Of a stretch of 64,000 nucleotides of DNA, positions 2,992 to 29,223 are shown in pieces (the stretch's first letter is position 1; every line of letters begins with the position of its first letter). This DNA is from Steroidobacteraceae bacterium (GTDB lineage: Bacteria; Pseudomonadota; Gammaproteobacteria; Steroidobacterales; Steroidobacteraceae). The notes beneath the pieces were generated by a model. That model was not told the origin of the DNA, ran no database searches, and saw nothing but the letters and a program-made list of their open reading frames with translations. Where the stretch lies: positions 1,209 to 65,208 of the forward strand of contig DATKLO010000101.1 in the NCBI GenBank assembly GCA_035542375.1. Reading direction: 5' to 3'. Position numbers and translations under genes: made by a program.

Positions 2992-3046
2992 GAGCGGAGG
3001 ATTCCCTGGAACCTGAGCTGGGAGCGGGACACGACCCGCAGCTCTC

Positions 3047-3060
3047 GATTATCGATAATC
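3047..3060. promoter_or_regulatory. Perfect 14-bp palindrome GATTATCGATAATC, about 55 nt upstream of the RND start
   Basis: The sequence equals its own reverse complement. It shares GATTA/TAATC half-sites with the palindrome at 3206-3222. Confidence 0.4.
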
Positions 3061-3205
3061 CATCGCTGCCCGCAACCTGTCAAAAGGGAGAGATCCCGGC
3101 GCCGCCAGCCAGGATCTGCGGCGGCGGCGCCCGCGGGCGCGCCACAACCCCCGGAAGTGCAAAGAAGAGTCCGCTGCCGGTTGAACCTGCTGGCTCTGTC
3201 GGGGT

Positions 3206-3222
3206 CGATTACAATGTAATCG
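3206..3222. promoter_or_regulatory. Perfect 8-1-8 palindrome CGATTACA-A-TGTAATCG, upstream of the BI-1-like gene
   Basis: Read directly. It has the same GATTA...TAATC half-sites as 3047-3060 and lies in the 326-nt divergent intergenic region. Confidence 0.4.
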
Positions 3223-4070: not shown

Positions 4071-4540
4071 CCACGCAGCGGCCGGTCCATCAGCTCGAAT
4101 CCCGCGCGCTCGATATAGCCGCGGCGCCGGTAGAACTCGCGGGCGGCGGTGTTCTGCCGCCCGAGTTGCAACTGCAACCTCACGCAGCCCTCGTTCGCCA
4201 GTTCGCGTTCGGCCGCATCGAGCAGCGCCGCCCCTACTCCACGCGAGCGTGCTGACTCACGCACGAAGAACTCGTCGATCTCGGCCATCAACCCCTGATG
4301 CTCGAGACTGAACATGCGCACGGCGATCAGATAACCGAGCGCGACGCTCTGCTGGCTCGCCAGCCAGACTGCACCCAGGGGCGCCGGCTCTCCGGCCGGC
4401 GGCAGCAATCGAGCCAGAAGTAGCTGGATGCGCGCCGCATCGAAGCCCTCGATCCCCTCGAACGCCCAGTACTCACCGACGAGCGGCACGAGGTGCGCGA
4501 TGTCAAAGGAGTCAGCGCGGCGCACCAGCAGCGGATTCAC
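4064..4540 (-). CDS. GNAT family N-acetyltransferase
   Basis: The C-terminal 158 aa of track ORF 4064..4819 carry the acetyl-CoA motif (RSRGVGAALL...REFYRRRGY). The GTG start at 4540 overlaps the upstream peptidase stop (GTGA). The longer ATG-start version would overlap the peptidase gene. Confidence 0.75.
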   Translation of the reverse strand: MNPLLVRRADSFDIAHLVPLVGEYWAFEGIEGFDAARIQLLLARLLPPAGEPAPLGAVWLASQQSVALGYLIAVRMFSLEHQGLMAEIDEFFVRESARSRGVGAALLDAAERELANEGCVRLQLQLGRQNTAAREFYRRRGYIERAGFELMDRPLRGY

Positions 4541-6600: not shown

Positions 6601-6771
6601 GTCACGAATACCTTGAGTGAATGATGAATGGGACGAGGTAGGGCCCGAATCCACCCTGGCGGACGCGGCCGGACCTGCGGGATTGCGGTTTTTCGCGATC
6701 GTACACGCGGGTCACGCGCGCGTACACATCCGAGCGGGCGGCCCGCCCCGTGCCTCCGTTAAGATGCGCGC

Positions 6772-10574: not shown

Positions 10575-11098
10575 CGGGTACCGTGACGATCAAGGATCTG
10601 GTTGCCGCAGAGGTGCGCCGGCACGCGGAGGATCTCGCGACCGTGCTGGTTGATTGTGTCGAAGGTGGCGCTTCGGTCTCCTTCATGTTGCCTTTCGACA
10701 TGGAGCAGGCGCGCAAGTACTGGCGCGGCCTGGAACAGGCGGTCGCCGACGGCCGCGCGCACGTGTACGCCGCCCTGCAGGGTGAAATTCTCGGCGGTAC
10801 CGTGCAGTTGTGGCTCGATACGCCGGACAACCAGCGCCATCGCGGCGACATCCGCAAGCTTCTCGTGCACCGTTCGGTCAGGCGGCTGGGACTTGCGACG
10901 CGCCTCATGCTGCATGCGGAAACGGAAGCGCGCCGGCTCGGCTTGTCGCTACTGACGCTGGACACGGTCACGGCGAGCCCGGCGGAGAAGCTCTACGAAA
11001 CCCTGGGCTGGCACAAGGTGGGCGTGATTCCGCGCTTCGCGCTCTGGCCCGATGGCCGCTTCTGCGACGCGACGTTCCTCTACAAGGAGATCGGCTGA
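10571..11098 (+). CDS. GNAT family N-acetyltransferase
   Basis: 175 aa with RRLGLATRLM...A.KLYETLGW acetyl-CoA binding motifs. ATGA overlap with the MFS gene. Confidence 0.85.
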   Translation: MTGTVTIKDLVAAEVRRHAEDLATVLVDCVEGGASVSFMLPFDMEQARKYWRGLEQAVADGRAHVYAALQGEILGGTVQLWLDTPDNQRHRGDIRKLLVHRSVRRLGLATRLMLHAETEARRLGLSLLTLDTVTASPAEKLYETLGWHKVGVIPRFALWPDGRFCDATFLYKEIG

Positions 11099-13608
11099 GG
11101 CAGGTCGTGCGCCTCACCCGACGCGGCCGAACAGTTTGCCGCCCCGGCCGGCAGCGGCGCGCCCTGCATCTGCGCCAGCGGGATCGGCCGGCACAGGTGG
11201 AATCCCTGGGCATAGTCCACGCCGATCAGGGCGAGCGCGGTGAGCGCGGCTTCGTTCTCGACGCACTCGGCCACTGTCTCGATTCCCATGACGCGGCCGA
11301 TGCGCTGGATCGCCTCGACCACCGCGAAATCCACGGCATCGCTGCTGATGTCGCGCACGAAAGAGCCGTCGATCTTGATGAAGTCCAGCGGCAGTGCCTT
11401 GAGGTAGGAGAAGGAGGACATGCCGCTGCCGAAATCATCCAGCGCGATGGGACAGCCCAGATCCCGCAGGCGCCGCATCAGTTGCGAGGCGCTCGCCAGG
11501 TTGCCGATGGCCGCCGTCTCGGTCAGCTCCACGCCGAGGTGCCGCCCCGGCAGCCGGTTCGCGCTCAGGCACGTGCCAATGAAGTCCACCAGGCTGGCAT
11601 CGCTGACCGAGGCGCCGGACAGATTGATCATGCAGGTGGGCAACGTGAGCCCACCGGCCCGCAGGGCGGCGAGTTCGCGACAGGCCCGATCGATGACCCA
11701 GCGGTCGATGCGCGGCATCAGCCCGTAACGTTCCGCAGCCGGGATGAATGCCATCGGGGCAATCAACTCGCCCTCCGGTCCGACCATCCGCAGCAAGACC
11801 TCGAAGCGCCTGGCGGTGGGCGCCGCCGCCGAGCCCGCGGGCGCCCCGATCGCGCGGATCTCCTGCGCGTACAGGACGAACCTGTCGCTCTCCAGCGCCG
11901 CGTTCAGCCGTTCGACCCAGCGCATCTCGCCGTGCCGGTTCTTGACCTCCTGGTCATCAGGCCGGTAGAGCTGCACCCGGTTGCGGCCATTGTCCTTGGC
12001 GAGATAACACGCCTGGTCGGCCGCGCTGAGCGTCTCGCTCACCGTCGGCAGGGCCTCACCCAGGGCCAGCACGCCAATGCTGGCGTTCACGACGAAAATG
12101 CGATCCTGCCAGCGGAAACGCAGGTCGGCGATCCGGCACCGGATGCGCTCGGCCAGAACCAGGGCATCCACCGCGGGACAATCGGGCAACAATGCACCGA
12201 ACTCATCGCCGCCGAGGCGCGCGAGCACATCGCTGGCACGCAGTTGCGCCCCTACCAGCCAGGCGACCTGACGGATCAGCTCATCGCCCGCCGCATGGCC
12301 GCACGTGTCGTTGATGACCTTGAACTGGTCGAGATCGAAATACAGCAGCGAGTACTCCCTGCCGGTGGCGCGCTGGTCCTCGATGGCGACAGCCAGGCGC
12401 GACTCGAATTCGCGGCGGTTGGTCAGTCCGGTGAGCGAGTCGTGCGTGGCCTGATGCTGCAGGCGCGCGGCCAGTGCCCGCTCGTGTGTGATATCGCGCA
12501 AGACGAGCACGATGCCGAAGGACTCGCCGTTGCGATCGCGCAGTGGGGCGGCTCGCTCGTGCACAGGGATCTCCAGCCCGTGGCGCGTCCTCAACAGCAC
12601 GCCATTGGCCGCACCGGAGACCGACTCGCCGACGATGACCCGCTCGAGCTGGGCGATGATGCTGGGCTCGTCCGATTGGGGAGCGATCCGCAGCAGCTCG
12701 GTCAACGTGCGACCAAGTGCCTCCGCGTGTGACCAACCCGTCAAACGCTCGGCGGCGGCATTCATGTAGGTCACGCGGCGATCGCGGTTGGCGGTGATGA
12801 CTGCGTCCGAAATCGACCCCAGCGTGACGTGCGCGCGCTTCTGCTCGATGTAGATCCGCTCTTCGCTCGCGCGCAGGTCGCTCGCAAGCTTCTCACCCCG
12901 AACCAGATTGCGCCTCGAGATCGCCGCACCCACCGCTACCAGCGCGGCGCTGCACAGGCACAGCAATACGAGCAGCAGGTTGGTCACCGCGCGGGACAGG
13001 TTTCCCAGGTACACCGTGAAGGCATCTTCCAGCGGGGCGACCCGCTGATGGGTCTCATCGGCCTGCGCCACCAGTGCGGCCACTCGCCGCGCATCGGGAT
13101 GTCCGCTGGTCATCTCCTCGTGCAGGTTGGCGGCGATCGTAGACAGCTGCGCCATCAGCGCATCGCCGCGAGCCCAGAAGCCGATGGCGCTGGCCATCAT
13201 GGAGTTGTGCTGGAACAGCCCGAACAGGCGGATCATCCAGGGCACGTCGTGCGGATCGTTGCGACCCCGGAGAAAACCGCGCGCAGCGACCGTCGTATCC
13301 GGGTGCGCGCTCTGCAACTCCTGCCGCGCCAGCCGGTCACCGAGCGGGACGGCCAGCTCCTCTTGAAAATGACGGTAATCGGTCTGGCTACCGCTCGCAG
13401 CGTACTTGTGGAGCTCCGCCACGGCCTGTCGTTCGGCCTTGGACCACATGCCTTCGCCGTTGACGTAGGCACGCAGTCCGGAGAGCACCACGATACTGGC
13501 CACGCTGAGCAGCAGCATCAGCGACATGATCAGCACCAGGGGCCAGGTCACTGATACCAGCTTGCGGTCGGCGCCAGCGGCGGAGGTCGGAACCGGACTC
13601 AAGGACAT
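11080..13608 (-). CDS. Membrane sensor PAS-GGDEF-EAL protein (c-di-GMP cyclase/phosphodiesterase)
   Basis: Two TM helices flank a periplasmic domain, followed by PAS, RLGGDEFGALL (GGDEF) and an EVLLR...DDFGSG EAL domain. Confidence 0.9.
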   Translation of the reverse strand: MSLSPVPTSAAGADRKLVSVTWPLVLIMSLMLLLSVASIVVLSGLRAYVNGEGMWSKAERQAVAELHKYAASGSQTDYRHFQEELAVPLGDRLARQELQSAHPDTTVAARGFLRGRNDPHDVPWMIRLFGLFQHNSMMASAIGFWARGDALMAQLSTIAANLHEEMTSGHPDARRVAALVAQADETHQRVAPLEDAFTVYLGNLSRAVTNLLLVLLCLCSAALVAVGAAISRRNLVRGEKLASDLRASEERIYIEQKRAHVTLGSISDAVITANRDRRVTYMNAAAERLTGWSHAEALGRTLTELLRIAPQSDEPSIIAQLERVIVGESVSGAANGVLLRTRHGLEIPVHERAAPLRDRNGESFGIVLVLRDITHERALAARLQHQATHDSLTGLTNRREFESRLAVAIEDQRATGREYSLLYFDLDQFKVINDTCGHAAGDELIRQVAWLVGAQLRASDVLARLGGDEFGALLPDCPAVDALVLAERIRCRIADLRFRWQDRIFVVNASIGVLALGEALPTVSETLSAADQACYLAKDNGRNRVQLYRPDDQEVKNRHGEMRWVERLNAALESDRFVLYAQEIRAIGAPAGSAAAPTARRFEVLLRMVGPEGELIAPMAFIPAAERYGLMPRIDRWVIDRACRELAALRAGGLTLPTCMINLSGASVSDASLVDFIGTCLSANRLPGRHLGVELTETAAIGNLASASQLMRRLRDLGCPIALDDFGSGMSSFSYLKALPLDFIKIDGSFVRDISSDAVDFAVVEAIQRIGRVMGIETVAECVENEAALTALALIGVDYAQGFHLCRPIPLAQMQGAPLPAGAANCSAASGEAHDLPQPISL

Positions 13609-13817: not shown

Positions 13818-15797
13818 TCAGACAGACTGCAGCGGCCTCAACTCGACCAGGGATATCAACACTGTGAGCAGCGTCGCCGGATCGGCGCGCTCGCCGAGTA
13901 TCAGCAGCGACGGCTCGCGCTGGCCGCGCAGCGCCGCACACCCAGCCGCCAGCGCCGCGACCGGACAACGCCAGGGGCCTGCGTGGCCTGGCACTTCGAT
14001 GAGACCGAAGTCCCTGCCCGGTGCGTTGGTTGATCGATCGGCCGCGGGCATGGACTGCAACTGCGTGAGCAGCGAGTGCGCCTGGCCCGCCAGTCCCAGA
14101 GGCAGCCAGCCCCGCGGTGTCGGTTGTTCGTCGGCACAGAGCCGCAGCGTGCCCGAATTCGTCGCAGCGTCCGATGTCGGGCTACCATCCGACTGCACCG
14201 GCAAACACTCACCGGCGATGCGAACATTGACTCCGGCCGCGGCAGCCGCGACCGCTGCAATCCACAAGAGCGGTTGTCCCGCGGGACACACTTCCAGCCA
14301 CATTCCAGCGGACACGTCCTGTGCCGCAAGCCAGGAGGCCAGTCTGCCTGCGAACTCGGCGACATCCCGCCCACTCAGTGCACCCGCCGCGGCGGTATCG
14401 ATCAGGGGCCCATCGGAGCCACTCGCCAACACGAAACAGTCTTGCGCCAGGGACTCGCTCTGGCGTGCGTACTGGCTGGCATGCACACGCTGGAGCAAGT
14501 GAGCGTTGGCGCTCACACACGCGGGAAACAACAACTCCATCCGGCAGAGCGAGTGCAATGTCCGACTCATGATGGCCGGATCACACGCAGCCGACAGTAT
14601 CGACTCATGCGGGAGGCCCGCCGCTGCCAGATGCAGCGCCAGGATACCTGTCTCATCCAGCACGACCGGCCCCTCCGGAAGACGAGCCGTGTACGCCGGA
14701 TGTCGCAGCAGATAGTGACCCACGGTACCGTCATACCCTGCTCGCGACAGTTGCACGCACCGCCTTGCCAGGTTTAGGCGGAACATCGGATTGACGATGT
14801 ACCGAGGCTCCCCCGTATCTTGCTGCGTGCCGCAGGCCGCCGACGTGGCCGGCTGGGCGGGCTGGGTGGTCTCGGTGGGCTGGGTCGGCTGGGTCGGCTG
14901 GGGCAGGATCGCGATCAATCCGTTGTAGTGCGCGGTGTCGGAGTCATCCCTGAGCAATGCGGGCGTCGGACCGTCGAACAGGGCCGCCTCGCTGAACACG
15001 AATCCGCGTCGCGACGTGCCGGCGGTGAGACCGTCCAGCCAGCGACGATAATCGCGACCGTGAACCTTGGTACCACCGCGCTCGAAGTAGGGATCGGGCT
15101 CGCTGTTGGCCAGATGCACGTGCGCAAAGACCACGGCACCGCTGCCGCGATTCACACGCAGGCATTCCGCGGCAAACCGCTCCACGCCAAAGCGGTGCAG
15201 CGCATCGTGCGCGTGCACGAAATCGAAGACTTCATCCGCAAAGGGCAGCGGCCGGCCCGGATGATGGAACAGGATTTCGAGATTGCCAGGGCGTTGCCCG
15301 CTGCCCAGGAGACGTCGAAATCCACGATAACCCAGCACGCTGCTGTCTCCTTCCCACAGACTCACGATGAGCTGTTCGGGAAACAGTCCCGCGAGCCACT
15401 CGCCGCTCCATCCCGTCCGGCACCAGGTATCCAGGATCGCGCCGCCGCGGCGAACCGCCGGGCGAATGTGGGGCAGCAGGGTTTCGAGCGCGCGCTCGGA
15501 CTCGTTGAAAGGCTGAAACGCCGCGTAGGCTTCGATGAGATTGCGCGACTGCTTCTCGCGAAGATAGTCCTCGTACTGGCGCGCCGTGCCAAACAGTCTC
15601 GCGGCCAGGACCTCCAGTGCACCCGGCTCGGACAGTTCGCAGGCGGGTCGCGCCTCGGTGAAGAACGCAAACCCGTCGAGCACGGGAATCGCATCCCGGC
15701 AACCGCACAGCAGATAGCCATGCAGCCGGTCCCCCTGCTCCCGGTAACTTCCCCGGCAATCCGGACAACGCAGCAGGTTGAGCAGGCCCGGGCGCAT
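13818..15797 (-). CDS. Chimeric protein of unknown function: Trm112-like zinc ribbon, degenerate class I methyltransferase-like domain, PTQ-repeat linker, and a C-terminal region resembling the N-terminal lobe of an adenylate-forming enzyme
   Basis: LLNLLRCPDCRGS...LLCGCRDAIPVLDGFAFF (Trm112 type). ILDTWCRTGWSG stands in place of the GxGxG motif. Linker PQPTQPTQPTETTQPAQP. C-terminal part LSGRDVAEFAGRLASWLAAQDVSAGMWLEVCPAGQPLLWIAAVAAAAAGVNV. Last gene of the operon. Confidence 0.7.
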   Translation of the reverse strand: MRPGLLNLLRCPDCRGSYREQGDRLHGYLLCGCRDAIPVLDGFAFFTEARPACELSEPGALEVLAARLFGTARQYEDYLREKQSRNLIEAYAAFQPFNESERALETLLPHIRPAVRRGGAILDTWCRTGWSGEWLAGLFPEQLIVSLWEGDSSVLGYRGFRRLLGSGQRPGNLEILFHHPGRPLPFADEVFDFVHAHDALHRFGVERFAAECLRVNRGSGAVVFAHVHLANSEPDPYFERGGTKVHGRDYRRWLDGLTAGTSRRGFVFSEAALFDGPTPALLRDDSDTAHYNGLIAILPQPTQPTQPTETTQPAQPATSAACGTQQDTGEPRYIVNPMFRLNLARRCVQLSRAGYDGTVGHYLLRHPAYTARLPEGPVVLDETGILALHLAAAGLPHESILSAACDPAIMSRTLHSLCRMELLFPACVSANAHLLQRVHASQYARQSESLAQDCFVLASGSDGPLIDTAAAGALSGRDVAEFAGRLASWLAAQDVSAGMWLEVCPAGQPLLWIAAVAAAAAGVNVRIAGECLPVQSDGSPTSDAATNSGTLRLCADEQPTPRGWLPLGLAGQAHSLLTQLQSMPAADRSTNAPGRDFGLIEVPGHAGPWRCPVAALAAGCAALRGQREPSLLILGERADPATLLTVLISLVELRPLQSV

Positions 15798-15803
15798 CAG
15801 GAC

Positions 15804-15941
15804 TTACCGGTGCAGGTAGTAGAACTCGATCGCATCGCGATCGAAGAAGTAATAGACCAGCACGAGCAGGGCCGCGTACCACAGCGCGTACAACGTGTGG
15901 ACCAACGGTCGGGGCAGGTGGCGGAGGAGCAATTGATACAT
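15804..15941 (-). CDS. 45-aa single-pass microprotein, candidate DltX-like acyl-shuttle protein
   Basis: Not a separate track entry (under 60 aa). Self-translated: MYQLLLRHLPRPLVHTLYALWYAALLVLVYYFFDRDAIEFYYLHR*. It has one TM helix, a basic N-terminus and an aromatic C-terminal hexapeptide FYYLHR. It lies 20 nt after the MBOAT stop and 6 nt before the next start. No strong SD seen. Confidence 0.5.
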   Translation of the reverse strand: MYQLLLRHLPRPLVHTLYALWYAALLVLVYYFFDRDAIEFYYLHR

Positions 15942-15961
15942 GTCGGTACGGCCCGGGAGAT

Positions 15962-17098
15962 TCAGCCCGCACCCGGGATCAGGACGCGCTCGACGGCGCG
16001 GGTCACCCAGAAGCTGAACAGGACGAAATGCAGCGTAATGACACAGGCGAATACCCGCCACAGCGCGGCCGGCAGCGGCGGCAGCGCGGCAATCGACTCT
16101 CCCGCACGCGCGTCGAACCAGCGAAACCCGGCGATTCCGGCACCGTGATAGGCTCCCCAGAGCAGATAGTGGAGCGACAGGTCGTGCCAGATGCCCAGCA
16201 CGATCATGGATGCCATCACGGCGAGAAAGGGCCGGCGCGTGACCGACACCACCGGCGCGTAGACATATTCGCGGCACCAGCCGGCCAGTGTGATGTGCCA
16301 GCGCTGCCAGAAATCGGCGATGTTGCGCGCCACGATGGGCCAGTTGAAATTCTCGCGGATCCGTAATCCCATCAGCGCGCCGAACCCCACCGCGATGTCG
16401 CTGTAGCCGCTGAACAGCACGTACAGCCTCGCCCAGAACAGCAGCACGCTCAGGTACTGATGCAACAGCGGATGGCCGCTGGCACCGGCCAGCAATGGAG
16501 TCAGCTCCTCGCCGATGAGGTAATTGCCCAGCACGACCAGCTTCACCAGGCCGTACAGGATGCGCTGACCACCGTAGGAGAATCGGTCGGAATCCCAGCG
16601 CTTGCGCCGCAGATCACGCAGGTAATCATCGAAGCGATGGATCGGGCCCGCGGGCAGCGTCGCGGGCAGGAAGTGATAGCTAAGATATTCCCCCAGCGTG
16701 TGCGGTCGCAGATGGCCCTTGTACGCCTCCAACAGGTAATGGATCAGGCGGAGCGCATAGAACGCCATGCCCAACGGAAGGACCACGCGCAGGGTGAGCG
16801 ATGTGCTGCTGTGCTCGCTGCGCGCGAGCAGAAGAAGATAGGCGCCAGCAATGATCGTGACGCTGACCAGCAGCACGTATCTCGTCAGCAGTCCGCGCCG
16901 TTGTAAGACGAACGTGACCACGCTGGCCACGGCAAGCAACGCCAGTGAAGTCGGCGACGCCATCGCCAGCAGACCGGCGCCACAGAGCGCAATCAACCAG
17001 GGTTGCAGGGCGCGCCACGGCAGCCAGGCCATGATGACGGCGGCACTCGAACTCGCCAGGACGAGTTGCAGGACGTCCTGCTCAGCCATGGTTCGCAC
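15962..17098 (-). CDS. MBOAT family membrane-bound O-acyltransferase (DltB/AlgI-like)
   Basis: 378 aa, polytopic, with NIADFWQRWHITL and GIWHD conserved-His motifs. Confidence 0.9.
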   Translation of the reverse strand: MRTMAEQDVLQLVLASSSAAVIMAWLPWRALQPWLIALCGAGLLAMASPTSLALLAVASVVTFVLQRRGLLTRYVLLVSVTIIAGAYLLLLARSEHSSTSLTLRVVLPLGMAFYALRLIHYLLEAYKGHLRPHTLGEYLSYHFLPATLPAGPIHRFDDYLRDLRRKRWDSDRFSYGGQRILYGLVKLVVLGNYLIGEELTPLLAGASGHPLLHQYLSVLLFWARLYVLFSGYSDIAVGFGALMGLRIRENFNWPIVARNIADFWQRWHITLAGWCREYVYAPVVSVTRRPFLAVMASMIVLGIWHDLSLHYLLWGAYHGAGIAGFRWFDARAGESIAALPPLPAALWRVFACVITLHFVLFSFWVTRAVERVLIPGAG

Positions 17099-17990
17099 GC
17101 GCCGCCATCAACTTGCCGGCGAGCCATTGGCTGAAGAGTTCGCGACCCGCCGCGGACATGTGCCCCTCGTCGCAGAAAGCCGAGTCCGGCAGTGGCGCCG
17201 CTGACCAGAGCTGGAAACCGTTGTCGCGCGCCAGCTGCGGGAGAATGACGGAGTCGATGCGCGCCAGCGATGAGGGGACCAGCGCCTCGGCCCAGGCAGC
17301 GCGCGGCAGACGGACCAGGATGATCCGCGTCCCCGCCTTCTGCAGAGCGCCCAACATATCCAGGTAGCGCTGGCGACTCAGGGACGAGCTCGGGCGGGTC
17401 GTCTTGAGGTGCGCGGCGTAGATCAACTGCTGGGTTTGAGTCTGGCGGATGCGACATTCCCGTGCGTCGGGAAACTGCTCTGCTCCGCGGTTCTCGCCGA
17501 AGTTGGGATCCACGCCGCTGTCCCCCACCAGCACCTGATGCAACGCCCGCTCCAGCGGCAGCAGGTTCTGGCGGATCGGAAAATGCGCGCCGCGATCCAG
17601 CAGCAGCAGGTCGCTCTCCAGCAGCAGGATGTCGGGCGGATGAGCGGCGAGCGCGCGCAGGGCCGGTTGCACGTCCCAGAAGTTCGCCCCTTCCCAGGTG
17701 ATCCGCTCGAAGTCCACTGCCTGCGAGCCACCGAGACGGGCAGCGAAGTTCGCGTCGAAGTCGACTGCATACAGTGTTTTCGACGAGCCCAGAGCGACGA
17801 TGCGCACAGCAGACGGCGGTGCTGGAACCGTCAGGCGCTCGAGATTGAGATTGGCGTCCGACGCAGCCGTTATATGATGCGCCAGCGCCGGTATCCGGTC
17901 CTCATTGGCCAGGAAGACCAGCAGTACCGCGATGATGCCGGCCGTGCCGTACCAAACGCTCAGCGGTGGAAATTGCCTCGAGGGGCTCAA
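17082..17990 (-). CDS. Membrane-anchored SGNH/DltD-like putative acyltransferase
   Basis: N-terminal TM helix. ALGSSKT resembles SGNH block I (Ser nucleophile) and CDEGHMS resembles block V (DxxH). It sits between the carrier-ligase and MBOAT genes. Confidence 0.6.
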   Translation of the reverse strand: MSPSRQFPPLSVWYGTAGIIAVLLVFLANEDRIPALAHHITAASDANLNLERLTVPAPPSAVRIVALGSSKTLYAVDFDANFAARLGGSQAVDFERITWEGANFWDVQPALRALAAHPPDILLLESDLLLLDRGAHFPIRQNLLPLERALHQVLVGDSGVDPNFGENRGAEQFPDARECRIRQTQTQQLIYAAHLKTTRPSSSLSRQRYLDMLGALQKAGTRIILVRLPRAAWAEALVPSSLARIDSVILPQLARDNGFQLWSAAPLPDSAFCDEGHMSAAGRELFSQWLAGKLMAARANHG

Positions 17991-19813
17991 GCGGACTCGA
18001 GAAACTCGAGAGCCCGGTCCAGACGATCGAGTGACATGATCTGGCGCGGGCTGAAACGCACGCCAAACTCGCGTTCCAGTCCGGCAACGAGTTCCAGATG
18101 CGCCAGCGAGTCCCAGCCCACCACGTCATCCGGGGTGCTCGCGAGACTCAGCATAGCCGCCTCGGTCCTGAAACACTTCGCGGCAACTTCGAGCAGGCGT
18201 CTGGCCCGGTCGGCGGCATCCGTCGCGCCCCCTTGCGCGCGGGCGCGCCGGTCCTGCAGCAGTTCACGCACTGCCTCCATCCGCACCTTGCCGGACAGGC
18301 CGCGCGGCAGCCTCTCCACCCGCTCGAACCGGCTTGGCACCTTGCGCGGCTCGAGTTGCCGGCCGCAGTGAGCCAGCAGTTCCTCGTTGGAAACGCTGTC
18401 CTCGGCGCTGACCACACAGCAGACGGTCTCACCCCAGATCTCGTCCGGCATGCCGATGGTCACCGCCTCGCGTACCGCGGGATGGCGCTGCAATACCTCC
18501 GTGATCTCCTCCGGGTGGATGTTGTAGCCACCGCGGATGATCAGATTCTTGTAGCGACCGCAGATCCAGTAGAAGCCGTCCGCGTCGCGGCGAGCGGCAT
18601 CGCCGGTCCGGAACCAGCCATCGCGCAGCACCTCGGCAGTCAGCTGCGGAGCGTTGAAATAACCCGACATCAGCAGATCACCGCTCATCCACAGTTCGCC
18701 CACTTCATTCACCAGCGCCTCCGTGCCATCCGGCCGCACGATACGCAGCTGGCAGTCCACCGGGACACCGATGCTGCCCGGCCTGCGACTGGCCGCATCC
18801 GGTCCGCAGAACACGCCGCCGACTACCGTTTCGGTGAGTCCGTACACGTTGACGATCGGCACGCGGAAGGTGCTCTCGAAGCTCTCGCACAGGGCGGCTT
18901 CGAGCTGGGCGCCGCACGAGATGAGCAAGCGGAAGTCGCCTCCCTGGAATGCATCGCGATGTTCCAGCCCGAGCCGCTGGATGAGTGCCATCATGGTCGG
19001 CACGGCCACGAGATGCGTGATCCGCAGTTGATACACGGCATCGAGCAGACGGTCGATGGCCGTCACTTCGAAGCGCAGGGGACGGAACACCGCGATCGCG
19101 TTGAAGAATGCGATGACCGGCCCCTGGATCATGCCATCGGCGTGCGCCAGCATCAGAATGTTCAGGATCCGGCTCTGCGGCGTGTAGCCGAAGCGGCGCG
19201 TGAGCGTACGCAAGTGCGCAAACAGGGCGCGATGGCTGATCGCCACACCCTTGGGCTGCTCCGTCGTGCCCGAGGTGAACATCACGTAGGCCAGGGTCTC
19301 CGGGTCGATCGTGCGCGGTGGCGGCCGTGAACCCGCGGCTTCGAGCAGCCCGTGCAGATCATCCCCATCGGCCGCGCGGCGCAGTTTGCCGAACAATCCT
19401 TTGGCAGCCGCGCGGTCGATCATACGAACTGGCGCATCGCCTGCCGGAAGCTCCCAACGGACCGACAGCTCGCGGTCCATCAGAAGCAGGCGCGGTGCGG
19501 CGGCGGCGACCAGCGTGCGTGCGCGCTCCGGACCCATCTCGGGATCCAGGTTGACGACCGTGATGCCCCAACACATCGAAGCGACGAACAACAGGGCGGA
19601 TTCGACCTCGTCAGCCGTGGCGATGATGACTCGGTCGCCCGCCTGCACACCCTGGGAGGCAAACACCGGACCCAGTGCTTCGATCCGTTCGCGCAACTGG
19701 CCAAAGGTGACCGTGCGCCCGGCAGCCACCAGCCAGGGTTTGCGTGCGAGCTGTGGAGCGCAGATCCGCTCGTAGCATTCGAAGGCGTCGGCACTCGCTG
19801 CGCGCTCAAGCAT
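17987..19813 (-). CDS. Adenylate-forming enzyme (AMP-binding) fused to a C-terminal acyl/peptidyl carrier domain
   Basis: MFTSGTTEQPKGV, YGLTET, GWFRTGD, GRYKNLIIRGGYNIHPEEI, LSGKV, then a roughly 80-aa tail with the phosphopantetheine motif GWDSLAHLELV. Confidence 0.9.
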   Translation of the reverse strand: MLERAASADAFECYERICAPQLARKPWLVAAGRTVTFGQLRERIEALGPVFASQGVQAGDRVIIATADEVESALLFVASMCWGITVVNLDPEMGPERARTLVAAAAPRLLLMDRELSVRWELPAGDAPVRMIDRAAAKGLFGKLRRAADGDDLHGLLEAAGSRPPPRTIDPETLAYVMFTSGTTEQPKGVAISHRALFAHLRTLTRRFGYTPQSRILNILMLAHADGMIQGPVIAFFNAIAVFRPLRFEVTAIDRLLDAVYQLRITHLVAVPTMMALIQRLGLEHRDAFQGGDFRLLISCGAQLEAALCESFESTFRVPIVNVYGLTETVVGGVFCGPDAASRRPGSIGVPVDCQLRIVRPDGTEALVNEVGELWMSGDLLMSGYFNAPQLTAEVLRDGWFRTGDAARRDADGFYWICGRYKNLIIRGGYNIHPEEITEVLQRHPAVREAVTIGMPDEIWGETVCCVVSAEDSVSNEELLAHCGRQLEPRKVPSRFERVERLPRGLSGKVRMEAVRELLQDRRARAQGGATDAADRARRLLEVAAKCFRTEAAMLSLASTPDDVVGWDSLAHLELVAGLEREFGVRFSPRQIMSLDRLDRALEFLESA

Positions 19814-21383
19814 TGAACAGCTCTCTCAGTGTGTGTCGAAGTATCTTGCCGCTGGTGTTGCGCGGAATCTGCGTGACGCAACGGAACACAGCCGGTGCCC
19901 GCTCGCGACCGAGGCGATCCGAGACGAAATTGGCGATGGCCTTGAGTTCGGGTCCGGTAGGCTGCCACCCCGCGCGCGGCACCAGTACCGCGGCGATGCT
20001 CTCGCCGCCGGCGGGCTGCGGCAGGCCGCAGACGGCCGCCTCGGCAATGTTGGCGTGTTGTTCGAGCACCGTCTCGATCTCCAGCGGATGGACGCGCTCG
20101 GTGCCCTGCGTCTTGATGAAATTCGAGCGCCGGCCCACGAGTGTGATCCGGCCATCCTGATGCTGTCGGACGATGTCGCCCGTGCGCAGCCAGCCGCCCG
20201 TGAAGCACTGCGCGGTGGCTTCCGGGTCGCCTAGATAGCCGCTCATGGGCCACTCCTGCCGGATCCGCAATTCTCCTGCAGTTCCGGCGGATACCGGCAG
20301 ACCTTCGGCATCCACGATACGGATCTCGCAGCCGGCCGGCCACCCCAGACTGGTGTCGGAGTGACTCCAGCCGGCGAGGCGCTGGCTCAGGCACAGGCCC
20401 ACCGACTCGGTCAGTCCGTAGTAGTTGATCACCGGGATGTGGAAGCGTTCGAAGAAGGCGCTGACCTCCGGGACGCTCAGATCCGTGCCCGTGCAGTACA
20501 TGGCGCGTGTTTCGGCCAGCAGCCCGGATGGAACGCGCTCACCGAGCAGATTGATCTGTCGCAGCAGCAGTGGCGCCGCGACGATTCGCTGCGGCCGCGC
20601 CTGCTGCAACAGCTCGAGTAGCGCGAAGATGTCGGTGCGCCGCGAACGCGGCGCGCACACCCAGTGCATCCCCGCCAGTGGCGCCGCCAGGAAAGCGTTA
20701 CGCAGACCACTCATGCTCTGTGGGTCGGGGAGGTTCAGGAGCCGCTCCCCGGCTGACCATTCGAAGGTACGCACTGCGAGAACGGCGCTGCGCACGAGTG
20801 CTCCGCGGCTCAGTACCACCGCCTTGGGCTCCGCAGTGGTCCCCGAGGTAAACAGACATGCCGCAGGGATGCCCGAGTCGAATTCCCGCGGCAAGGCAGC
20901 CCCGGTTTCAGACGCCGCCGCGGCGGTGCCGGCCGCGAGCGAGTCCATCTCGAATTGCAAGGTCGGCAGCGCCCCATCCAGCGCGTGCCAGCGAGCGCGC
21001 TCGCTCGCGTCGCCGACCACGAGCGCGCGCGGTCCGATCTTGCGAAGAGCGAGCCGACGCAGCGTCTCGGCCCACGAGGGATCGACAGGCACAAAGGCGG
21101 CACCCAGACGCACGCAAGCCCAGAAAGCGATGAATGCCGCGGGGCCTTGCTCGCCACAATGCATTACACGGTCGCCCGCGCACACGCCGCGGGCAACGAG
21201 CTGGCTGGCAGCCCGGTCGATGCTTTCGAGCAATCTGGCTCCGGCCAGTGTTGCGGATTCGCCTGCCGTGGACAGCACGAACTCCGGGCCCGCCGAGCCT
21301 CCCGCGAATAGGGGACCGAGCATGATGCGGCTTCGAGCTCCTTGAGCGCACCGTTGTGATTCTTGTGGGGGCGATAGTAGCAA
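19806..21383 (-). CDS. Adenylate-forming enzyme (AMP-binding), stand-alone
   Basis: FTSGTTAEPKAV, YGLTES, GWLRTGD, GRRSNFIKTQGTERVHPLEIE, PRNTSGKILR. The start may instead be the internal ATG at 21323 (MLGPLF...). Confidence 0.85.
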   Translation of the reverse strand: MLLSPPQESQRCAQGARSRIMLGPLFAGGSAGPEFVLSTAGESATLAGARLLESIDRAASQLVARGVCAGDRVMHCGEQGPAAFIAFWACVRLGAAFVPVDPSWAETLRRLALRKIGPRALVVGDASERARWHALDGALPTLQFEMDSLAAGTAAAASETGAALPREFDSGIPAACLFTSGTTAEPKAVVLSRGALVRSAVLAVRTFEWSAGERLLNLPDPQSMSGLRNAFLAAPLAGMHWVCAPRSRRTDIFALLELLQQARPQRIVAAPLLLRQINLLGERVPSGLLAETRAMYCTGTDLSVPEVSAFFERFHIPVINYYGLTESVGLCLSQRLAGWSHSDTSLGWPAGCEIRIVDAEGLPVSAGTAGELRIRQEWPMSGYLGDPEATAQCFTGGWLRTGDIVRQHQDGRITLVGRRSNFIKTQGTERVHPLEIETVLEQHANIAEAAVCGLPQPAGGESIAAVLVPRAGWQPTGPELKAIANFVSDRLGRERAPAVFRCVTQIPRNTSGKILRHTLRELFNA

Positions 21384-21552
21384 CGCATCACCGGCCAGAT
21401 GCGTTTTGTTACCAAAATGCCTGCGGGCCGACAGCTTGCGTCAGGTCATGGGCTGCGGCCACCGCACCCGCCCCTCCTTCAGATATCTTTTCATTATCAA
21501 TTAGTTACCCGCGGAAAGCCGTTCTCCACGGGTCCGCGCCGCGCAGTCAGCT

Positions 21553-24447: not shown

Positions 24448-26616
24448 ATGAATGCCATCCGTCCGTTCGTAGCGAGCGCGCTGTTAGCGTTTTCGCTCAC
24501 CCTGCACGCGGCATCGCCCACTTCGTTCACACTGGCGCAGATGCTCCAGTACACCTACCCCGACCAACTGGCTGCGGCCGAGAAAGCCGATGCGATGGCG
24601 TGGGTCGTCAATTCCAGGGGTGTGCGCAACGTCTGGGTCGCACGCGGACCGGATTTCGTGGCACGGCAGATCACGAAGTTCACGGACGATGATGGGCAGG
24701 AGATTACCCAGCTGACGTTCTCAGCCGACGGCGCACACCTGCTCTTCGTGCGCGGAGGCGACCACGGGGAGAACTGGCCCGCGGAAGGCAACCTGGAGCC
24801 GGATCCAGACTCCTCGCCTGCGCAGCCCTCCACGGCGATCTGGAGGGCGTCGTTCTCGGGCGATGCTCCCGTGAGGCTCGCCGAAGGCGATGCTCCGGCC
24901 ATTTCGTCGGCGGGTCAACTTGCGTATCTCAAGGACGGGCGGGTGTGGACAGTGCCGCTCGATGGTCAGGGCAACGCGGAGCAGCTCTTCTTCGACCGCG
25001 GCAAGGCTACCGATTTGAGGTGGTCGCCGGATGGCAAACATCTCGCGTTCGTTTCCCAACGCGGCGACCACGCCTTCATCGGCATCTTCAGCGCCACCGA
25101 CCAGCCGATCCGCTACCTGGCGCCATCCACCGGCATCGACAGCTCACCACGGTGGTCGGACGACGGAACCCGAATCGCCTTCGTGCGACGCCCGGGCGAG
25201 GGTGGACCTCCAGAATCCCTCCTGCAACAGATTCCGCATCCGTGGTCAATCTGGGTCGGCCAGGTCAGTGATGCCTCGGGCAAGCGCGTATGGCAGTCGC
25301 CGCAGACCCTGGCCGGGTCCTACCCTGACGTGGAAGGACAGGCCAATCTCCACTGGGGAGCGGGTGACCGTCTCGTATTCCTCGCGTACCTGGATGAGTG
25401 GCCCCATCTGTATTCGATACCTGCGACGGGTGGTTCACCTACGTTGCTGACGCCCGGCCCCTTCATGGTCGAGCACGTCACGCAGAGCCGCGACCGACGC
25501 TACATGATCTACGATGCCAACACCGGCACCTCCGCCGGAGATCACGACCGGCGGCACCTGTTTCGGGTTGCGGTGGATTCACCAGGTCCCGTGGCGATCA
25601 CATCCGGAGACACGCTCGAGTGGACTCCGGTGACGGCAGCCAGCGATCGGATTGCATTCATTTCCGCAGGAGCGCAGCAGCCACCGGTGGTCGCGACGAT
25701 TCACCTGGATGGCACGCAGCGCAAACCGGCCGATGCCCACGAGCGTGGCGGCGATTTTCCCAGCAGTCAGCTCATCGTGCCTCAGCCGGTGACGTTCCAG
25801 GCCACCGACGGCGTCCAGGTACATGGGCAGCTGTTCCAGCGAACCGACCCGAAATCGCTCAAGAGGGGTGTCAGGCAGCCGGCAGTGATTTTCGTGCACG
25901 GCGGCCCGCCACGGCAGATGCTCCTTGGCTGGCATTACATGGGCTACTACAGCAACGCCTATGCGGTGAACCAATACCTCGCCAACCATGGGTTCGTCGT
26001 GTTGTCCGTCAACTACCGGCTCGGCATCGGTTACGGACGCGCCTTCCATCAACCCGATCACGCCGGTCTGGCCGGAGCTGCCGAGTACCAGGACGTGCTG
26101 GCGGGGGCCCGCTACCTCCAATCGCTACCGGGAGTCGATCCTGCCCGGATCGGGATCTGGGGTGGTTCATACGGCGGCTACCTCACGGCACTGGCGCTCG
26201 CTCGCAACTCCGACGTTTTCAAGGCGGGAGCCGATCTGCATGGCGTGCACGACTGGTCGCAGCTGCTGGAGCTGTGGGCCGGCAAGCCTTCGTCCGGCTA
26301 CGAGAAAGGGGACCGCGAGGCCGCCGTCAGGATGGCCTGGAGCTCCTCACCCGTGGCGTCCATTGACAGCTGGAAGTCACCCGTGCTGCTCATTCATGGC
26401 GACGATGATCGCAATGTTCCCTTCCAGCAGACCGTGGATCTGACCCGACGACTGCAGGCTGCCGGAGTCCAGTACGCAGAACTGATCCTGCCCAACGAGA
26501 TCCACGACTTCCTGCGCCACGCCTCCTGGCTGCAGGTGGACGGCGCCGTCGTGGACTACTTTGTGGGTGCTTTCAGCGTGCCGCAGTCCGGCGCCCCCCA
26601 GTCGAGGACTCGCTAG
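24448..26616 (+). CDS. S9 family peptidase, secreted, with a beta-propeller N-domain
   Basis: Signal peptide MNAIRPFVASALLAFSLTLHA, GGSYGG nucleophile elbow, HGDDDRNVP region. Confidence 0.9.
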   Translation: MNAIRPFVASALLAFSLTLHAASPTSFTLAQMLQYTYPDQLAAAEKADAMAWVVNSRGVRNVWVARGPDFVARQITKFTDDDGQEITQLTFSADGAHLLFVRGGDHGENWPAEGNLEPDPDSSPAQPSTAIWRASFSGDAPVRLAEGDAPAISSAGQLAYLKDGRVWTVPLDGQGNAEQLFFDRGKATDLRWSPDGKHLAFVSQRGDHAFIGIFSATDQPIRYLAPSTGIDSSPRWSDDGTRIAFVRRPGEGGPPESLLQQIPHPWSIWVGQVSDASGKRVWQSPQTLAGSYPDVEGQANLHWGAGDRLVFLAYLDEWPHLYSIPATGGSPTLLTPGPFMVEHVTQSRDRRYMIYDANTGTSAGDHDRRHLFRVAVDSPGPVAITSGDTLEWTPVTAASDRIAFISAGAQQPPVVATIHLDGTQRKPADAHERGGDFPSSQLIVPQPVTFQATDGVQVHGQLFQRTDPKSLKRGVRQPAVIFVHGGPPRQMLLGWHYMGYYSNAYAVNQYLANHGFVVLSVNYRLGIGYGRAFHQPDHAGLAGAAEYQDVLAGARYLQSLPGVDPARIGIWGGSYGGYLTALALARNSDVFKAGADLHGVHDWSQLLELWAGKPSSGYEKGDREAAVRMAWSSSPVASIDSWKSPVLLIHGDDDRNVPFQQTVDLTRRLQAAGVQYAELILPNEIHDFLRHASWLQVDGAVVDYFVGAFSVPQSGAPQSRTR

Positions 26617-27649: not shown

Positions 27650-28108
27650 ATGCGCTCAACTCTGAAACTCATCGCACTCTCGCTGGCACTGGCCCTGGGC
27701 TCCGGGGCCGCACTCGCCGATCTGACGCCCTACAAGGACTACACGATCAGCGATGCGGTCTGGTCGGTCACCACGATCAAGGTGCACTCCAACATGGAGG
27801 ATGCCTACCTGGAGGGTCTCAAGCAGACCTGGGTCGCCTCCAACGAGGTGGCGAAGAAGCTCGGCCAGATCGAGGACTACCACATCTATCGCAGCGACCT
27901 GCCCGACAGCGGCAGCTTCAACCTGCTGCTGGTCGTGCGCTTCAAGAACAATGAAATGCTGGCGCCCAACAAGGCGCGCTATGACGCGTTCATGAAGGAG
28001 TGGGGCGCCGAGCGCGACAAGAAGACCACCGAGACCGCGCAGAAGGAGTATCCGGCGATGCGCGACATCGTCGGCGAATACCAGGTCCGCGAAATCATCC
28101 TGAAGTAG
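27650..28108 (+). CDS. Secreted hypothetical protein (152 aa)
   Basis: The internal ATG is preceded by AAGGGGA. Signal peptide MRSTLKLIALSLALALGSGAALA. No family recognised. Confidence 0.6.
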   Translation: MRSTLKLIALSLALALGSGAALADLTPYKDYTISDAVWSVTTIKVHSNMEDAYLEGLKQTWVASNEVAKKLGQIEDYHIYRSDLPDSGSFNLLLVVRFKNNEMLAPNKARYDAFMKEWGAERDKKTTETAQKEYPAMRDIVGEYQVREIILK

Positions 28109-28169
28109 CCCTCAGGCCACCGGTGGGCGCGCCGTCACGACGGCGCGCCCCATTGGATTCCCTCCCAGC

Positions 28170-29201
28170 ATGCTGTTCGAACAGATCGCAGCCGGCGGCT
28201 GCCGCTCCTATCTCATCGGTTGCGCGGAAAGCTGCGCGGCCGCGGTGGTCGATCCTGAGTTGAGCCAGGTCGATCGTTATCTGGCGCTCGCGGCCCGCGA
28301 CGGGCTGCGCATCCACTACGCCATCGACACTCACACGCACGCGGACCACTTCTCCGCCACGCGCGAGGTAGCGCGTCGCCTGAATGTGCCGATCGCCATG
28401 CATCAGGCGAGTCCCGCCCCGTTCGTGAACATGCGCCTTGGGGACGGCGAGTCCATCGTGCTGGGCAAGCTGCGCATCCAGATCATGCACACGCCCGGAC
28501 ACACTCGTGACTCGATGTGCCTGCGCGTCGGCAACCGTCTTTTCACCGGCGACACGCTTCTCATCGGCGCCACTGGAAGAACGGACTTGCCGACGGGAGA
28601 TCCCGAGGCGTTGTACGACAGCCTGTTCAATCGCGTCCTCAAGCTCGATCCCGAGCTGGAGGTATACCCGGCTCACGAGTACAAGAACCGCGACCACACC
28701 ACGCTGGCCCAGGAGATCGCGACCAATCCACGACTGCAGAAACGTGACAGAAGCGAGTTCGTCGAGATGATGCGCAACCTGAACCTGTCCATGCCCACGC
28801 ATCTGACGGAGGCCCTGCGCACCAATCTGTCCGGCGGCAAGACCATCAACGAGCTGCTGGCCGAGGCCACGGCCATCGTGCCCTTCATGTCGCTCGGAGA
28901 ACTCAAGAGTCGCATCGATGCGCAAGACCAGGACCTGGTGGTGCTCGATGTCCGCGAGCGCGACGCCTTCGTAGCCGGGCACGTGCCCGGCGCGCGCCTT
29001 CTGCCACGGGGCCAGCTGGAACTTCGGGTCAACGAGGAACTGCCCGACCCGACCGTGCGGATCCTCACCGTCTGCGAGTTTGGACGAGTCTCCACACTGG
29101 CCGCCGCTACATTGCGTCAGATCGGCTTCCAGCGGGCCATTGCGCTGGACGGTGGCATGAAGGCGTGGCGAGAAGCCGGCTATCCGCTCGTGACCGGTTG
29201 A
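28170..29201 (+). CDS. MBL-fold persulfide dioxygenase (ETHE1-like) fused to a rhodanese domain
   Basis: DTHTHADH, TPGHTRDS, FTGDTLLIGATGRTDLPTGD, then a C-terminal rhodanese domain with the CEFGRVS active-site loop. Confidence 0.85.
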   Translation: MLFEQIAAGGCRSYLIGCAESCAAAVVDPELSQVDRYLALAARDGLRIHYAIDTHTHADHFSATREVARRLNVPIAMHQASPAPFVNMRLGDGESIVLGKLRIQIMHTPGHTRDSMCLRVGNRLFTGDTLLIGATGRTDLPTGDPEALYDSLFNRVLKLDPELEVYPAHEYKNRDHTTLAQEIATNPRLQKRDRSEFVEMMRNLNLSMPTHLTEALRTNLSGGKTINELLAEATAIVPFMSLGELKSRIDAQDQDLVVLDVRERDAFVAGHVPGARLLPRGQLELRVNEELPDPTVRILTVCEFGRVSTLAAATLRQIGFQRAIALDGGMKAWREAGYPLVTG

Positions 29202-29223
29202 CCGTGCCGATCGGGCTGACCGG

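Follow-up and report, generated by a model that had tools for sequence, protein, structure and literature searches.

A compact operon of six genes in the genome of a Gram-negative soil bacterium of the Steroidobacteraceae probably encodes a self-contained, carrier-protein-dependent acyl relay which, by analogy with the Dlt pathway (D-alanylation of teichoic acids in Firmicutes), would modify a molecule of the extracytoplasmic envelope. The operon lies on the minus strand at positions 13818-21383 of the window, as we call the whole stretch of 64,000 nucleotides (nt) analyzed here (contig DATKLO010000101.1 of assembly GCA_035542375.1). Steroidobacteraceae belong to the Gammaproteobacteria, and the host is therefore a diderm. 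According to the ORF list and our reading of the DNA, six co-directional open reading frames (ORFs) are packed with almost no spacing. They encode, in order, a stand-alone adenylate-forming (ANL) enzyme (A1; 19806..21383, 525 amino acids, aa), a second adenylate-forming enzyme fused to a C-terminal carrier domain (A2-CP; 17987..19813, 608 aa), a candidate SGNH-fold transferase (17082..17990, 302 aa), a DltB-like MBOAT (15962..17098, 378 aa), a DltX-like microprotein (15804..15941, 45 aa) and an accessory protein of 659 aa with a zinc ribbon and a methyltransferase fold (13818..15797). All features of the operon given below are on the minus strand as well. We refer to this gene set, which recurs in other genomes, as the cassette.

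A first-pass annotation, made from the sequence alone, had described the locus as a complete Dlt-type operon with extra components. All six ORFs are present where it placed them, and the NCBI annotation of this Steroidobacteraceae metagenome-assembled genome (MAG) has the same genes, including the 45-aa ORF (HVO46232.1, HVO46233.1 for the microprotein, and HVO46236.1). The DNA also bore out the overlap of 8 bp between A1 and A2-CP (ATGCTTGA, 19806-19813) and the gaps of 20 nt and 6 nt that separate the microprotein gene from the MBOAT gene and from the gene of the 659-aa protein, respectively. The ATGA reported for the junction of A2-CP with the SGNH gene (17987-17990) turned out to be TTGA, i.e. 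a 4-bp overlap of a TTG start with a TGA stop. The reported 17-bp overlap between the SGNH and MBOAT genes (17082-17098) holds if the MBOAT starts at GTG 17098; with a start at ATG 17089 the MBOAT has 375 aa instead of 378 aa and the overlap is 8 bp (ATGGCTGA). Every motif that had been quoted is found in the translations (GWDSLAH, GSSK, DEGH, FWQRWHITL, GIWHD and FYYLHR), and Pfam agreed with the domains proposed for A1, A2-CP and the MBOAT (AMP-binding twice, PP-binding, MBOAT); in these profile searches the DltD family was not matched. The parallel drawn between the four products from A2-CP to the microprotein and the functional parts of DltXABCD gains from three observations: an MBOAT whose only relatives of known family or structure are DltB proteins, a predicted SGNH fold and an invariant tyrosine in the microprotein.

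Microprotein, MBOAT and SGNH partner

The microprotein has a basic N-terminus, one membrane helix (~aa 12-32) and the C-terminus F40-Y-Y42-L-H-R45. From the basic N-terminus and the single helix, the C-terminal tyrosine motif would be expected to lie outside the cytoplasm. A homologous ORF of 44-51 aa was found directly 3' of the MBOAT gene in 17 loci examined, that is, in every cassette locus where this part could be read; the gene order pointed out earlier for the window, with the microprotein after the MBOAT, is the same in all of them. In an alignment of 16 orthologs (19-60% identity) Met1 and Tyr42 are the only invariant positions. Another 25 database homologs (44-49 aa) all have Y at position -4, with F or I at -6; altogether, the tyrosine four residues from the C-terminus is present in 41 of the 41 microprotein sequences. 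In the cassettes position -6 is occupied by F (11/16), I (3/16) or L (2/16), giving the C-terminal pattern [F/I/L]-x-Y-[L/M/...]-x-x. The published acyl-shuttle motif of DltX is FxYxxF, with the acyl-accepting tyrosine equally far from the C-terminus (PMC12148441). On this conservation and on the analogy with DltX, Tyr42 (15816-15818) is the predicted acyl acceptor.

The idea that the microprotein is a frameshifted tail of the MBOAT was ruled out by its own ATG, by a stop-delimited 45-aa frame in all loci and by the presence of one helix as compared with two in fused MBOATs. The Novosphingobium microprotein (L014) ends in NVYVDVRGQ, three residues beyond the usual end; in the same locus the microprotein gene is followed by an ORF (L014:10713-11840) with a weak match to ApbA/PanE-like reductases (7e-4).

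The MBOAT was identified by Pfam with E-value 4.9e-21. Its sole NCBIfam match is TIGR04091 DltB (1.5e-45), with a score of 156 bits against a cut-off of 375, and its only sequence matches in the PDB are the DltB entries 6bug and 8jem (3e-28). The segment FWQRWHITL aligns with FWNRWHMSL of DltB, the stretch with the catalytic histidine, and the two proteins stop at about the same point; His268 in this segment (16295-16297) is the catalytic residue predicted from the alignment. The motif GIWHD is located at 16181-16195. By these matches the protein is a homolog of DltB and not an equivalog, because 156 bits is far below the cut-off of 375. We also observed ~40 long MBOAT relatives (about 470-510 aa, ~30-38% identical to the window protein) that end in a fused motif of the FIYFQF type. 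The window MBOAT carries no such motif and is accompanied by a separate microprotein, which places it with the split, DltB-like kind. It did not group with an acetyl-CoA-using family, an outcome that the first-pass annotation had named as contrary to its reading.

Another short MBOAT (~405 aa, no fused motif) was seen in Opitutaceae MAGs, with a microprotein ending in PFIYVAF or PFIYVSF encoded downstream (L016:11198-11398 and L069:5198-5365). This ending is a near-canonical DltX motif, found here in Verrucomicrobiota.

The SGNH candidate has an N-terminal membrane anchor (~aa 7-30, from hydropathy and from the structural model) followed by a predicted periplasmic catalytic domain. It has no match in Pfam or NCBIfam, and none of the 12 homologs returned by a word-indexed search has a Pfam domain. 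The alignment of these 12 homologs shows three invariant blocks: G68, S70 and K71; N167/G169; and D274-x-x-H277. The AlphaFold 2 (AF2) model computed from this alignment (predicted local distance difference test score, pLDDT, 76; predicted template modeling score, pTM, 0.76) consists of an N-terminal helix and then an alpha/beta domain, and the top of the Foldseek list against the PDB was made up of SGNH/GDSL esterases and acyltransferases (4ppy, 2e-5; PatB 8tlb at rank 41; DltD 7dxm at rank 44). With HMMER we scanned 1.84 billion cluster representatives and found 805 relatives at E<=1e-3 (314 at 1e-10), each representing a cluster at 50% identity; nearly all are ~300 aa long. Among 62 diverse relatives G68, S70 and H277 alone are invariant and D274 is conserved in >=90%; the same catalytic blocks are kept in 11 cassette loci. 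Conservation points to Ser70 (17781-17783) in block I, GSSK (aa 68-71), as the nucleophile, and to D274-E-G-H277 (17160-17171) as block V.

Only a few relatives had sub-threshold matches, to Lipase_GDSL_2, SGNH, DUF1574 and DltD; the Pfam DltD model (PF04914) was matched below threshold by one of the 62 relatives, at 0.05, and by the window protein not at all. Family profiles built from 12 and from 62 sequences found nothing significant in the PDB (with 62 sequences, DltD 6o93 only, E 0.23), and the fold assignment therefore rests on structure prediction together with the invariant residues. On the model, the candidate belongs to an SGNH subfamily that has a signal anchor and has so far not been annotated. 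The earlier call of an SGNH/DltD-like protein thus agrees with the Foldseek matches and with the invariant Ser70 and His277; both a predicted SGNH fold and conserved Ser, Asp and His residues, whose lack had been named as decisive against that call, are present.

Adenylating enzymes and the accessory protein

Both ANL enzymes have clear Pfam matches: AMP-binding (5.4e-52) and AMP-binding_C (7e-12) in A1; AMP-binding (1.1e-64), AMP-binding_C (1.3e-14) and PP-binding (2.1e-4) in A2-CP. No stand-alone carrier gene is present in the ORF list of the operon; the carrier domain, delimited by the PP-binding match (~aa 540-599, 18017-18196), is fused to the C-terminus of A2. Its motif GWDSLAH (aa 566-572) contains Ser569 (18107-18109), the predicted site of phosphopantetheine attachment. 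A2 has all ANL core motifs, A3 (P-loop), A5 (YGxTE), A7 (TGD), A8 and A10 (GK), and these, together with the carrier GWDS, are all kept in its 13 orthologs, where the carrier motif has the form GWDS[LMF]xHL. The A4 region of A2 has the sequence H-x-D-G-x-x-Q-G-P (19118-19147), invariant in the ortholog alignment. The A1 orthologs keep the P-loop (TSGTTAEPK in the window, 20823-20849), NYYGLTE (A5), TGD and GK, while A8 is degenerate; a family-specific MSGLRN is found in the A4 region of A1 (20697-20714).

The best NCBIfam matches of A1 and A2 are CoA-ligase families for fatty acids, malonate and o-succinylbenzoate, all below their own cut-offs; the top match of A2 is the long-chain-fatty-acid-CoA ligase PRK06187 (294 bits). 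The best single-domain PDB matches of A2 are oxalate-CoA ligase (175 bits) and FadD13; the nearest PDB relatives of A1 are acyl-CoA and feruloyl-CoA synthetases, plus a non-ribosomal peptide synthetase (NRPS). DltA was absent among the best 25 NCBIfam and the best 60 PDB matches of both enzymes.

Aryl-acid adenylation domains carry the motif AHNY. In A2 we take a His to be at the position of Phe234, and an Ala, not the Asp, to be at the position that binds the alpha-amino group. With the His and without the Asp, A2 looks like an enzyme for acyl or aryl acids, at the level of motifs. As cargo of the carrier, D-alanine is improbable, and so is any alpha-amino acid held in the canonical manner; both are made unlikely by the Ala in place of Asp and by the acyl-CoA-ligase-like database neighbors of A2. 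An attempt to read out the substrate from the A4 region via HMMER alignments to NRPS adenylation domains was dropped, as the alignments were mutually inconsistent.

For the 659-aa protein the first-pass annotation had proposed a chimera of Trm112 and a methyltransferase. The methyltransferase fold stands: Foldseek matched the N-terminal part of the protein to proteins with a zinc ribbon and a class I methyltransferase fold, RlmA(I) 1p91 being the best match (6e-6), followed by KamB, NovO, CouO and other class I methyltransferases (to 3e-4). Pfam gave weak matches to Methyltransf_11 (7.8e-5) and to Trm112p (0.04), and the motif for S-adenosylmethionine (SAM) is non-canonical. The order of parts is an N-terminal Cys4 zinc ribbon with CPDC at 15756-15767, a class I methyltransferase fold, a middle domain without assigned function and a C-terminal ANL-like domain; the AF2 model of the protein has pLDDT 89.5 and pTM 0.91. 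Motif I reads D123-T-W125-C-R127-T-G129 (15408-15434), and in 44 homologs its D, W, R and G never vary. Further invariant clusters in the same 44 homologs are YAAFQPFNE, D198/H201/R202, H226-x-H228-x-x-N231 and R365/H366. The glycine-rich SAM motif I (D/E-x-G-x-G-x-G) is absent from this protein; with DxWxRxG in its place, binding of SAM is doubtful, and the domain may instead bind another ligand or have no catalytic role.

More than 290 homologs of the 659-aa protein were found. Many have ~900-1070 aa (typically ~940 aa) and consist of the same N-terminal region fused to a complete AMP-binding enzyme; in such loci the fusion stands first in the operon, where the window has A1. The fused AMP-binding domain aligns at its very beginning with residues 460-540 of the window protein (hhalign against ANL enzymes: E 6.4e-5, probability 64%). 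From the alignment and the model, the C-terminal domain (~aa 450-659, 13818-14450) resembles a truncated ANL enzyme with no P-loop, most likely an N-subdomain left over from a fused ancestor; this C-terminal third is confidently folded in the AF2 model. Many relatives have A1 and the methyltransferase-fold protein as one polypeptide, and the supposedly extra protein therefore belongs to the system. The second adenylating enzyme and the large protein, earlier regarded as additions to a Dlt set, are in fact a conserved pair.

In two loci a radical-SAM/SPASM gene directly follows the microprotein, in place of the gene of the 659-aa protein (L007:11209-12165 and L008:1362-2309; Pfam 7e-17 and 4e-13); no match to the 659-aa protein was obtained in L007. 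A radical-SAM/SPASM enzyme in the same slot hints at a tailoring role for the methyltransferase-fold protein.

Distribution and genomic context of the cassette

Public genomes were scanned with the window MBOAT, and all six window proteins were then mapped onto the returned loci. We found the cassette in ~20 independent loci from Gamma- and Alphaproteobacteria, Bacteroidota, Nitrospinota, Thermodesulfobacteriota, Sericytochromatia and Mycobacterium; recurrence of the gene set is far beyond chance. Panacagrimonas (L001) has the cassette in the gene order of the window. Products of similar sizes are encoded in Alcanivorax (508/606/299/374/45/625 aa; L086) and in Caulobacter ginsengisoli (GCA_030814835.1; 506/600/298/369/45/671 aa; L088), and the cassette is also present on a 658-kb metagenomic contig. 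Strains in culture that have it include C. ginsengisoli, Cytophaga aurantiaca DSM 3654 and an Alcanivorax isolate. Rearranged forms were seen in Sericytochromatia, Chitinophagales, Cytophaga aurantiaca, Nitrospinaceae, Roseitalea, Colwellia, Flavobacteriales and Novosphingobium.

In Mycobacterium stomatepiae (AP022587.1), an unexpected host, A2 is split into ORFs of 342 aa and 252 aa (L085:6031-7867), and in another locus A1 is split into 182 + 302 aa (L089:4431-5955). These splits are possible frameshifts, pseudogenes or assembly errors.

The flanking genes differ between cassette loci. An all-against-all comparison of the neighborhoods of 16 loci, the check that the first-pass annotation had recommended, revealed no shared gene beyond the cassette, including any gene that would point to an acceptor of the acyl group. 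In one metagenomic locus (L081:1-22832) the cassette, in its fused form, is embedded in a polysaccharide cluster that also encodes glycosyltransferases (GT4 and WecG), at least six sulfotransferases and a hexapeptide acyltransferase. A gene for ATP sulfurylase, on the other strand, closely precedes the cassette in Alcanivorax. In Caulobacter ginsengisoli the cassette is immediately followed by a gene for a 2447-aa protein with no Pfam domain (L088:12389-19732), and then by prepilin peptidase and secretin genes.

In the window itself, G+C content is even across the region and composition matches the surrounding genome. The genes flanking the operon encode a PAS-GGDEF-EAL protein, a molybdopterin oxidoreductase, S9 peptidases and an MFS transporter. 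The PAS-GGDEF-EAL gene (11080-13608, minus strand) is directly downstream of the cassette, and a related gene is found ~3 kb downstream in Panacagrimonas; such genes are very common, and this coincidence may be due to chance. Two paralogs of S9 prolyl-oligopeptidase are encoded in the region (4537-6654 and 24448-26616), and two window ORFs have no Pfam match at 1e-5 (646-3219, plus strand, 857 aa; 28095-29384, minus strand, 429 aa).

With an AGGAG 14 nt upstream, translation of A1 may start at ATG 21323 (505 aa) rather than at TTG 21383. The intergenic region upstream of A1 (21384..21552), with an AT-rich stretch, is presumed from its position to contain the operon promoter. A consensus scan found no minus-strand sigma-70 site in it, and promoter, terminator and Rfam scans of the operon with its leader gave nothing usable and no Rfam family.

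Our literature search found no paper on the architecture of the cassette, whose earlier characterization in close relatives would have spoken against its novelty; the supplementary data of Schultz et al. 2023 might list it already. The review passages that we found make no mention of Gram-negative dlt loci.

The proposed relay and its relation to known systems

The relay would begin in the cytoplasm, where A2-CP would adenylate a carboxylic acid and attach it, in thioester linkage, to the phosphopantetheine on its own Ser569, this arm being supplied by a phosphopantetheinyl transferase presumably encoded outside the cassette. A1 and the methyltransferase-fold protein would act as a pair; their probable task is to produce or modify the acyl unit, or else to supply a second one. 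With its His268, the MBOAT would accept the acyl group of the thioester and hand it over, through the inner membrane, to Tyr42 of the microprotein, whose C-terminal tail would lie in the periplasm. Ser70 of the anchored SGNH protein (predicted triad Ser70/Asp274/His277) would attack the acyl-tyrosine ester, and the SGNH protein would then pass the acyl group to a hydroxyl or amine of the acceptor. Movement of the cassette without companion genes among very different bacteria suggests an acceptor that is common to many of them, for example peptidoglycan, a membrane lipid or periplasmic glucans. The context of the one locus within a polysaccharide cluster leaves room for another suggestion, that the acceptor may be a specific exopolysaccharide.

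Several considerations weigh against this reconstruction. Each step of the relay was derived from homology, conservation, gene coupling and the published mechanisms of Dlt and PatAB. The microprotein has no detectable similarity to DltX or to any PDB chain in a search of the PDB, and the microproteins do not share the final Phe of FxYxxF. The PP-binding match of A2-CP barely passes (21.9 bits with a cut-off of 20.8). In the structural comparison the SGNH partner is no nearer to DltD, found at rank 44, than to ordinary esterases, and its role could be that of a hydrolase. No polysaccharide, lipopolysaccharide or peptidoglycan genes adjoin the cassette in the window, so that any named acceptor is a guess. 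Finally, the analogy with Dlt leaves two components unaccounted for, the second of two adenylating enzymes and the methyltransferase-fold protein with its non-canonical DxWxRxG.

An ordinary Dlt operon, obtained by horizontal transfer and D-alanylating an anionic envelope polymer as in Firmicutes or by Bordetella dra, would explain why DltB is the only curated family and supplies the only solved relatives of the MBOAT, and why the set of adenylation, carrier, MBOAT, SGNH and microprotein functions parallels DltA, C, B, D and X. We consider this very improbable: the MBOAT scores 156 bits where 375 are required for DltB; instead of DltA, the best 25 NCBIfam and 60 PDB matches of A1 and A2 are led by fatty-acid, oxalate and malonyl-CoA ligases; motif comparison places Ala, not Asp, at the alpha-amino position of A2; the Pfam DltD model does not match the SGNH partner; a fused carrier and another gene order set the cassette apart; and the second ANL enzyme and the methyltransferase-fold protein are conserved members of the set. 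We give slightly less credit still to O-acetylation of the PatA/PatB or AlgI/AlgJ type, dependent on acetyl-CoA and merely located beside unrelated acyl-CoA ligase genes. Most Gram-negative MBOAT/SGNH pairs are of that type (PMC12148441), and the identity of ~30-38% to the long MBOATs would fit it. The window MBOAT, though, has neither their additional pair of helices nor a fused FIYFQF; its gene is translationally coupled to the SGNH gene, and the SGNH gene to A2-CP; and in every cassette locus, across phyla, the MBOAT is accompanied by ANL and carrier genes and by nothing else.

A pathway for a lipid or a small secreted metabolite deserves more attention, though we find it unlikely. Here the ANL enzymes and the carrier would build an acyl unit, the MBOAT would acylate a membrane lipid or an alcohol, as eukaryotic MBOATs do, and the SGNH protein would be a lipase or thioesterase. 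The resemblance of the ANL enzymes to fatty-acid-CoA ligases speaks for such a pathway, as does the tailoring protein, since a methyltransferase fold, or radical-SAM/SPASM as in L007 and L008, is typical of metabolite pathways. In addition, polysaccharide genes were absent beside the cassette in six of the seven contexts examined, and the SGNH model is equally near to esterases and to transferases. What such a pathway does not explain is a one-helix microprotein with an invariant tyrosine in its C-terminal region next to a DltB-type MBOAT, the signature of an extracytoplasmic acyl shuttle; moreover, the SGNH protein has a signal anchor rather than a cytoplasmic form, and one cassette is located inside a glycosyltransferase/sulfotransferase cluster. 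As to whether this genome holds only a degenerating or non-functional remnant of the cassette, the split A2 of M. stomatepiae, the split A1 of L089 and, in the 659-aa protein, the truncated ANL remnant with the non-canonical SAM motif could be read in this way. This is the explanation that we find hardest to believe, given that the six ORFs of the window are intact with every catalytic motif present and that their composition matches the surrounding genome; the residues of the non-canonical motif are invariant in 44 homologs, which indicates selection and not decay.

An acyl relay with the logic of Dlt remains our preferred explanation. More tentatively, and a little short of what we would call probable, the cassette might install a novel acyl ester, other than D-alanine, on a widely shared envelope component, with the acid made or tailored by the methyltransferase-fold/ANL pair. 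If true, this would be a new envelope modification and the first acyl shuttle with both a carrier protein and a microprotein outside the Dlt pathway. Envelope esters commonly have effects on charge, on resistance to lysozyme and antimicrobial peptides, on properties of the biofilm matrix or on immune recognition; if the relay works as outlined, many Gram-negatives and some mycobacteria make an envelope ester that has been overlooked. According to a 2025 mechanistic paper, MBOAT-SGNH pathways other than Dlt are without a carrier protein and a DltX-like microprotein (PMC12148441); the cassette has both, occurs outside Firmicutes and is common. With the SGNH serine mutated, the acyl group would be expected to accumulate on Tyr42 of the 45-residue peptide, where its mass could be read. 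The methyltransferase-like fold with an invariant non-glycine motif, fused to an adenylating enzyme, is a piece of unexplained enzymology in its own right.

Of the known envelope acylation systems, those of PatA/PatB and AlgI/AlgJ/AlgX share with the cassette an MBOAT with a periplasmic SGNH transferase, an acyl-tyrosine shuttle motif and a diderm host, and PatB (8tlb) is among the Foldseek matches of the SGNH model. They differ in using acetyl-CoA as a donor, with no carrier protein or microprotein, and in an MBOAT extended by two helices that carry the motif. A further arrangement was observed in a Ferruginibacter MAG (L057:443-3141) and also in L035: a carrier of 80 aa (GWDSLxH), an MBOAT of 484 aa with a fused FMYFQF, an SGNH-like gene (GDS...DGH) and a glycosyltransferase-like gene. 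Such Bacteroidota triads of carrier, fused-motif MBOAT and SGNH protein, apparently uncharacterized, resemble the cassette in the GWDSLxH carrier motif, in a related MBOAT and in the SGNH-like gene next to it; in contrast to the cassette, the carrier is stand-alone, FMYFQF is fused, there is no microprotein, and the part of the locus examined has no ANL or methyltransferase-fold genes. The system of the L057 type is carrier-dependent with a fused-motif MBOAT, intermediate between the Dlt and the PatA/AlgI types.

The diderm context on its own is not new. In Bordetella dra and in AlmEFG of Vibrio cholerae, adenylation and carrier proteins similar to DltA and DltC supply the acyl group for modification of a diderm envelope. 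The dra system is a close homolog of Dlt and uses D-alanine, while AlmEFG employs a lipid A acyltransferase and not a relay of MBOAT, microprotein and SGNH protein; to our knowledge, neither has a second ANL enzyme or a methyltransferase-fold protein.

The closest parallel is Dlt itself. Like Dlt, the cassette is organized as an operon and is predicted to load an acid, at the expense of ATP, on a carrier with a phosphopantetheine arm; its MBOAT is short with no fused motif, its microprotein is a separate one-helix protein with Tyr at position -4, and its SGNH partner is anchored in the membrane. On the other hand, the adenylating enzymes of the cassette are similar to acyl-CoA ligases and not to DltA; its carrier is fused to an adenylating enzyme, whereas DltC is stand-alone; its microprotein comes after the MBOAT instead of heading the operon and ends in F-x-Y-[LM]-x-x, not in FxYxxF; its SGNH partner has ~300 aa and fails the DltD model; and its regular members include a second ANL enzyme and a zinc-ribbon/methyltransferase-fold protein. 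As far as we know, the hosts of the cassette, diderms and a mycobacterium, have no teichoic acids. The cassette probably works like Dlt but, by curated thresholds, is outside the Dlt families.

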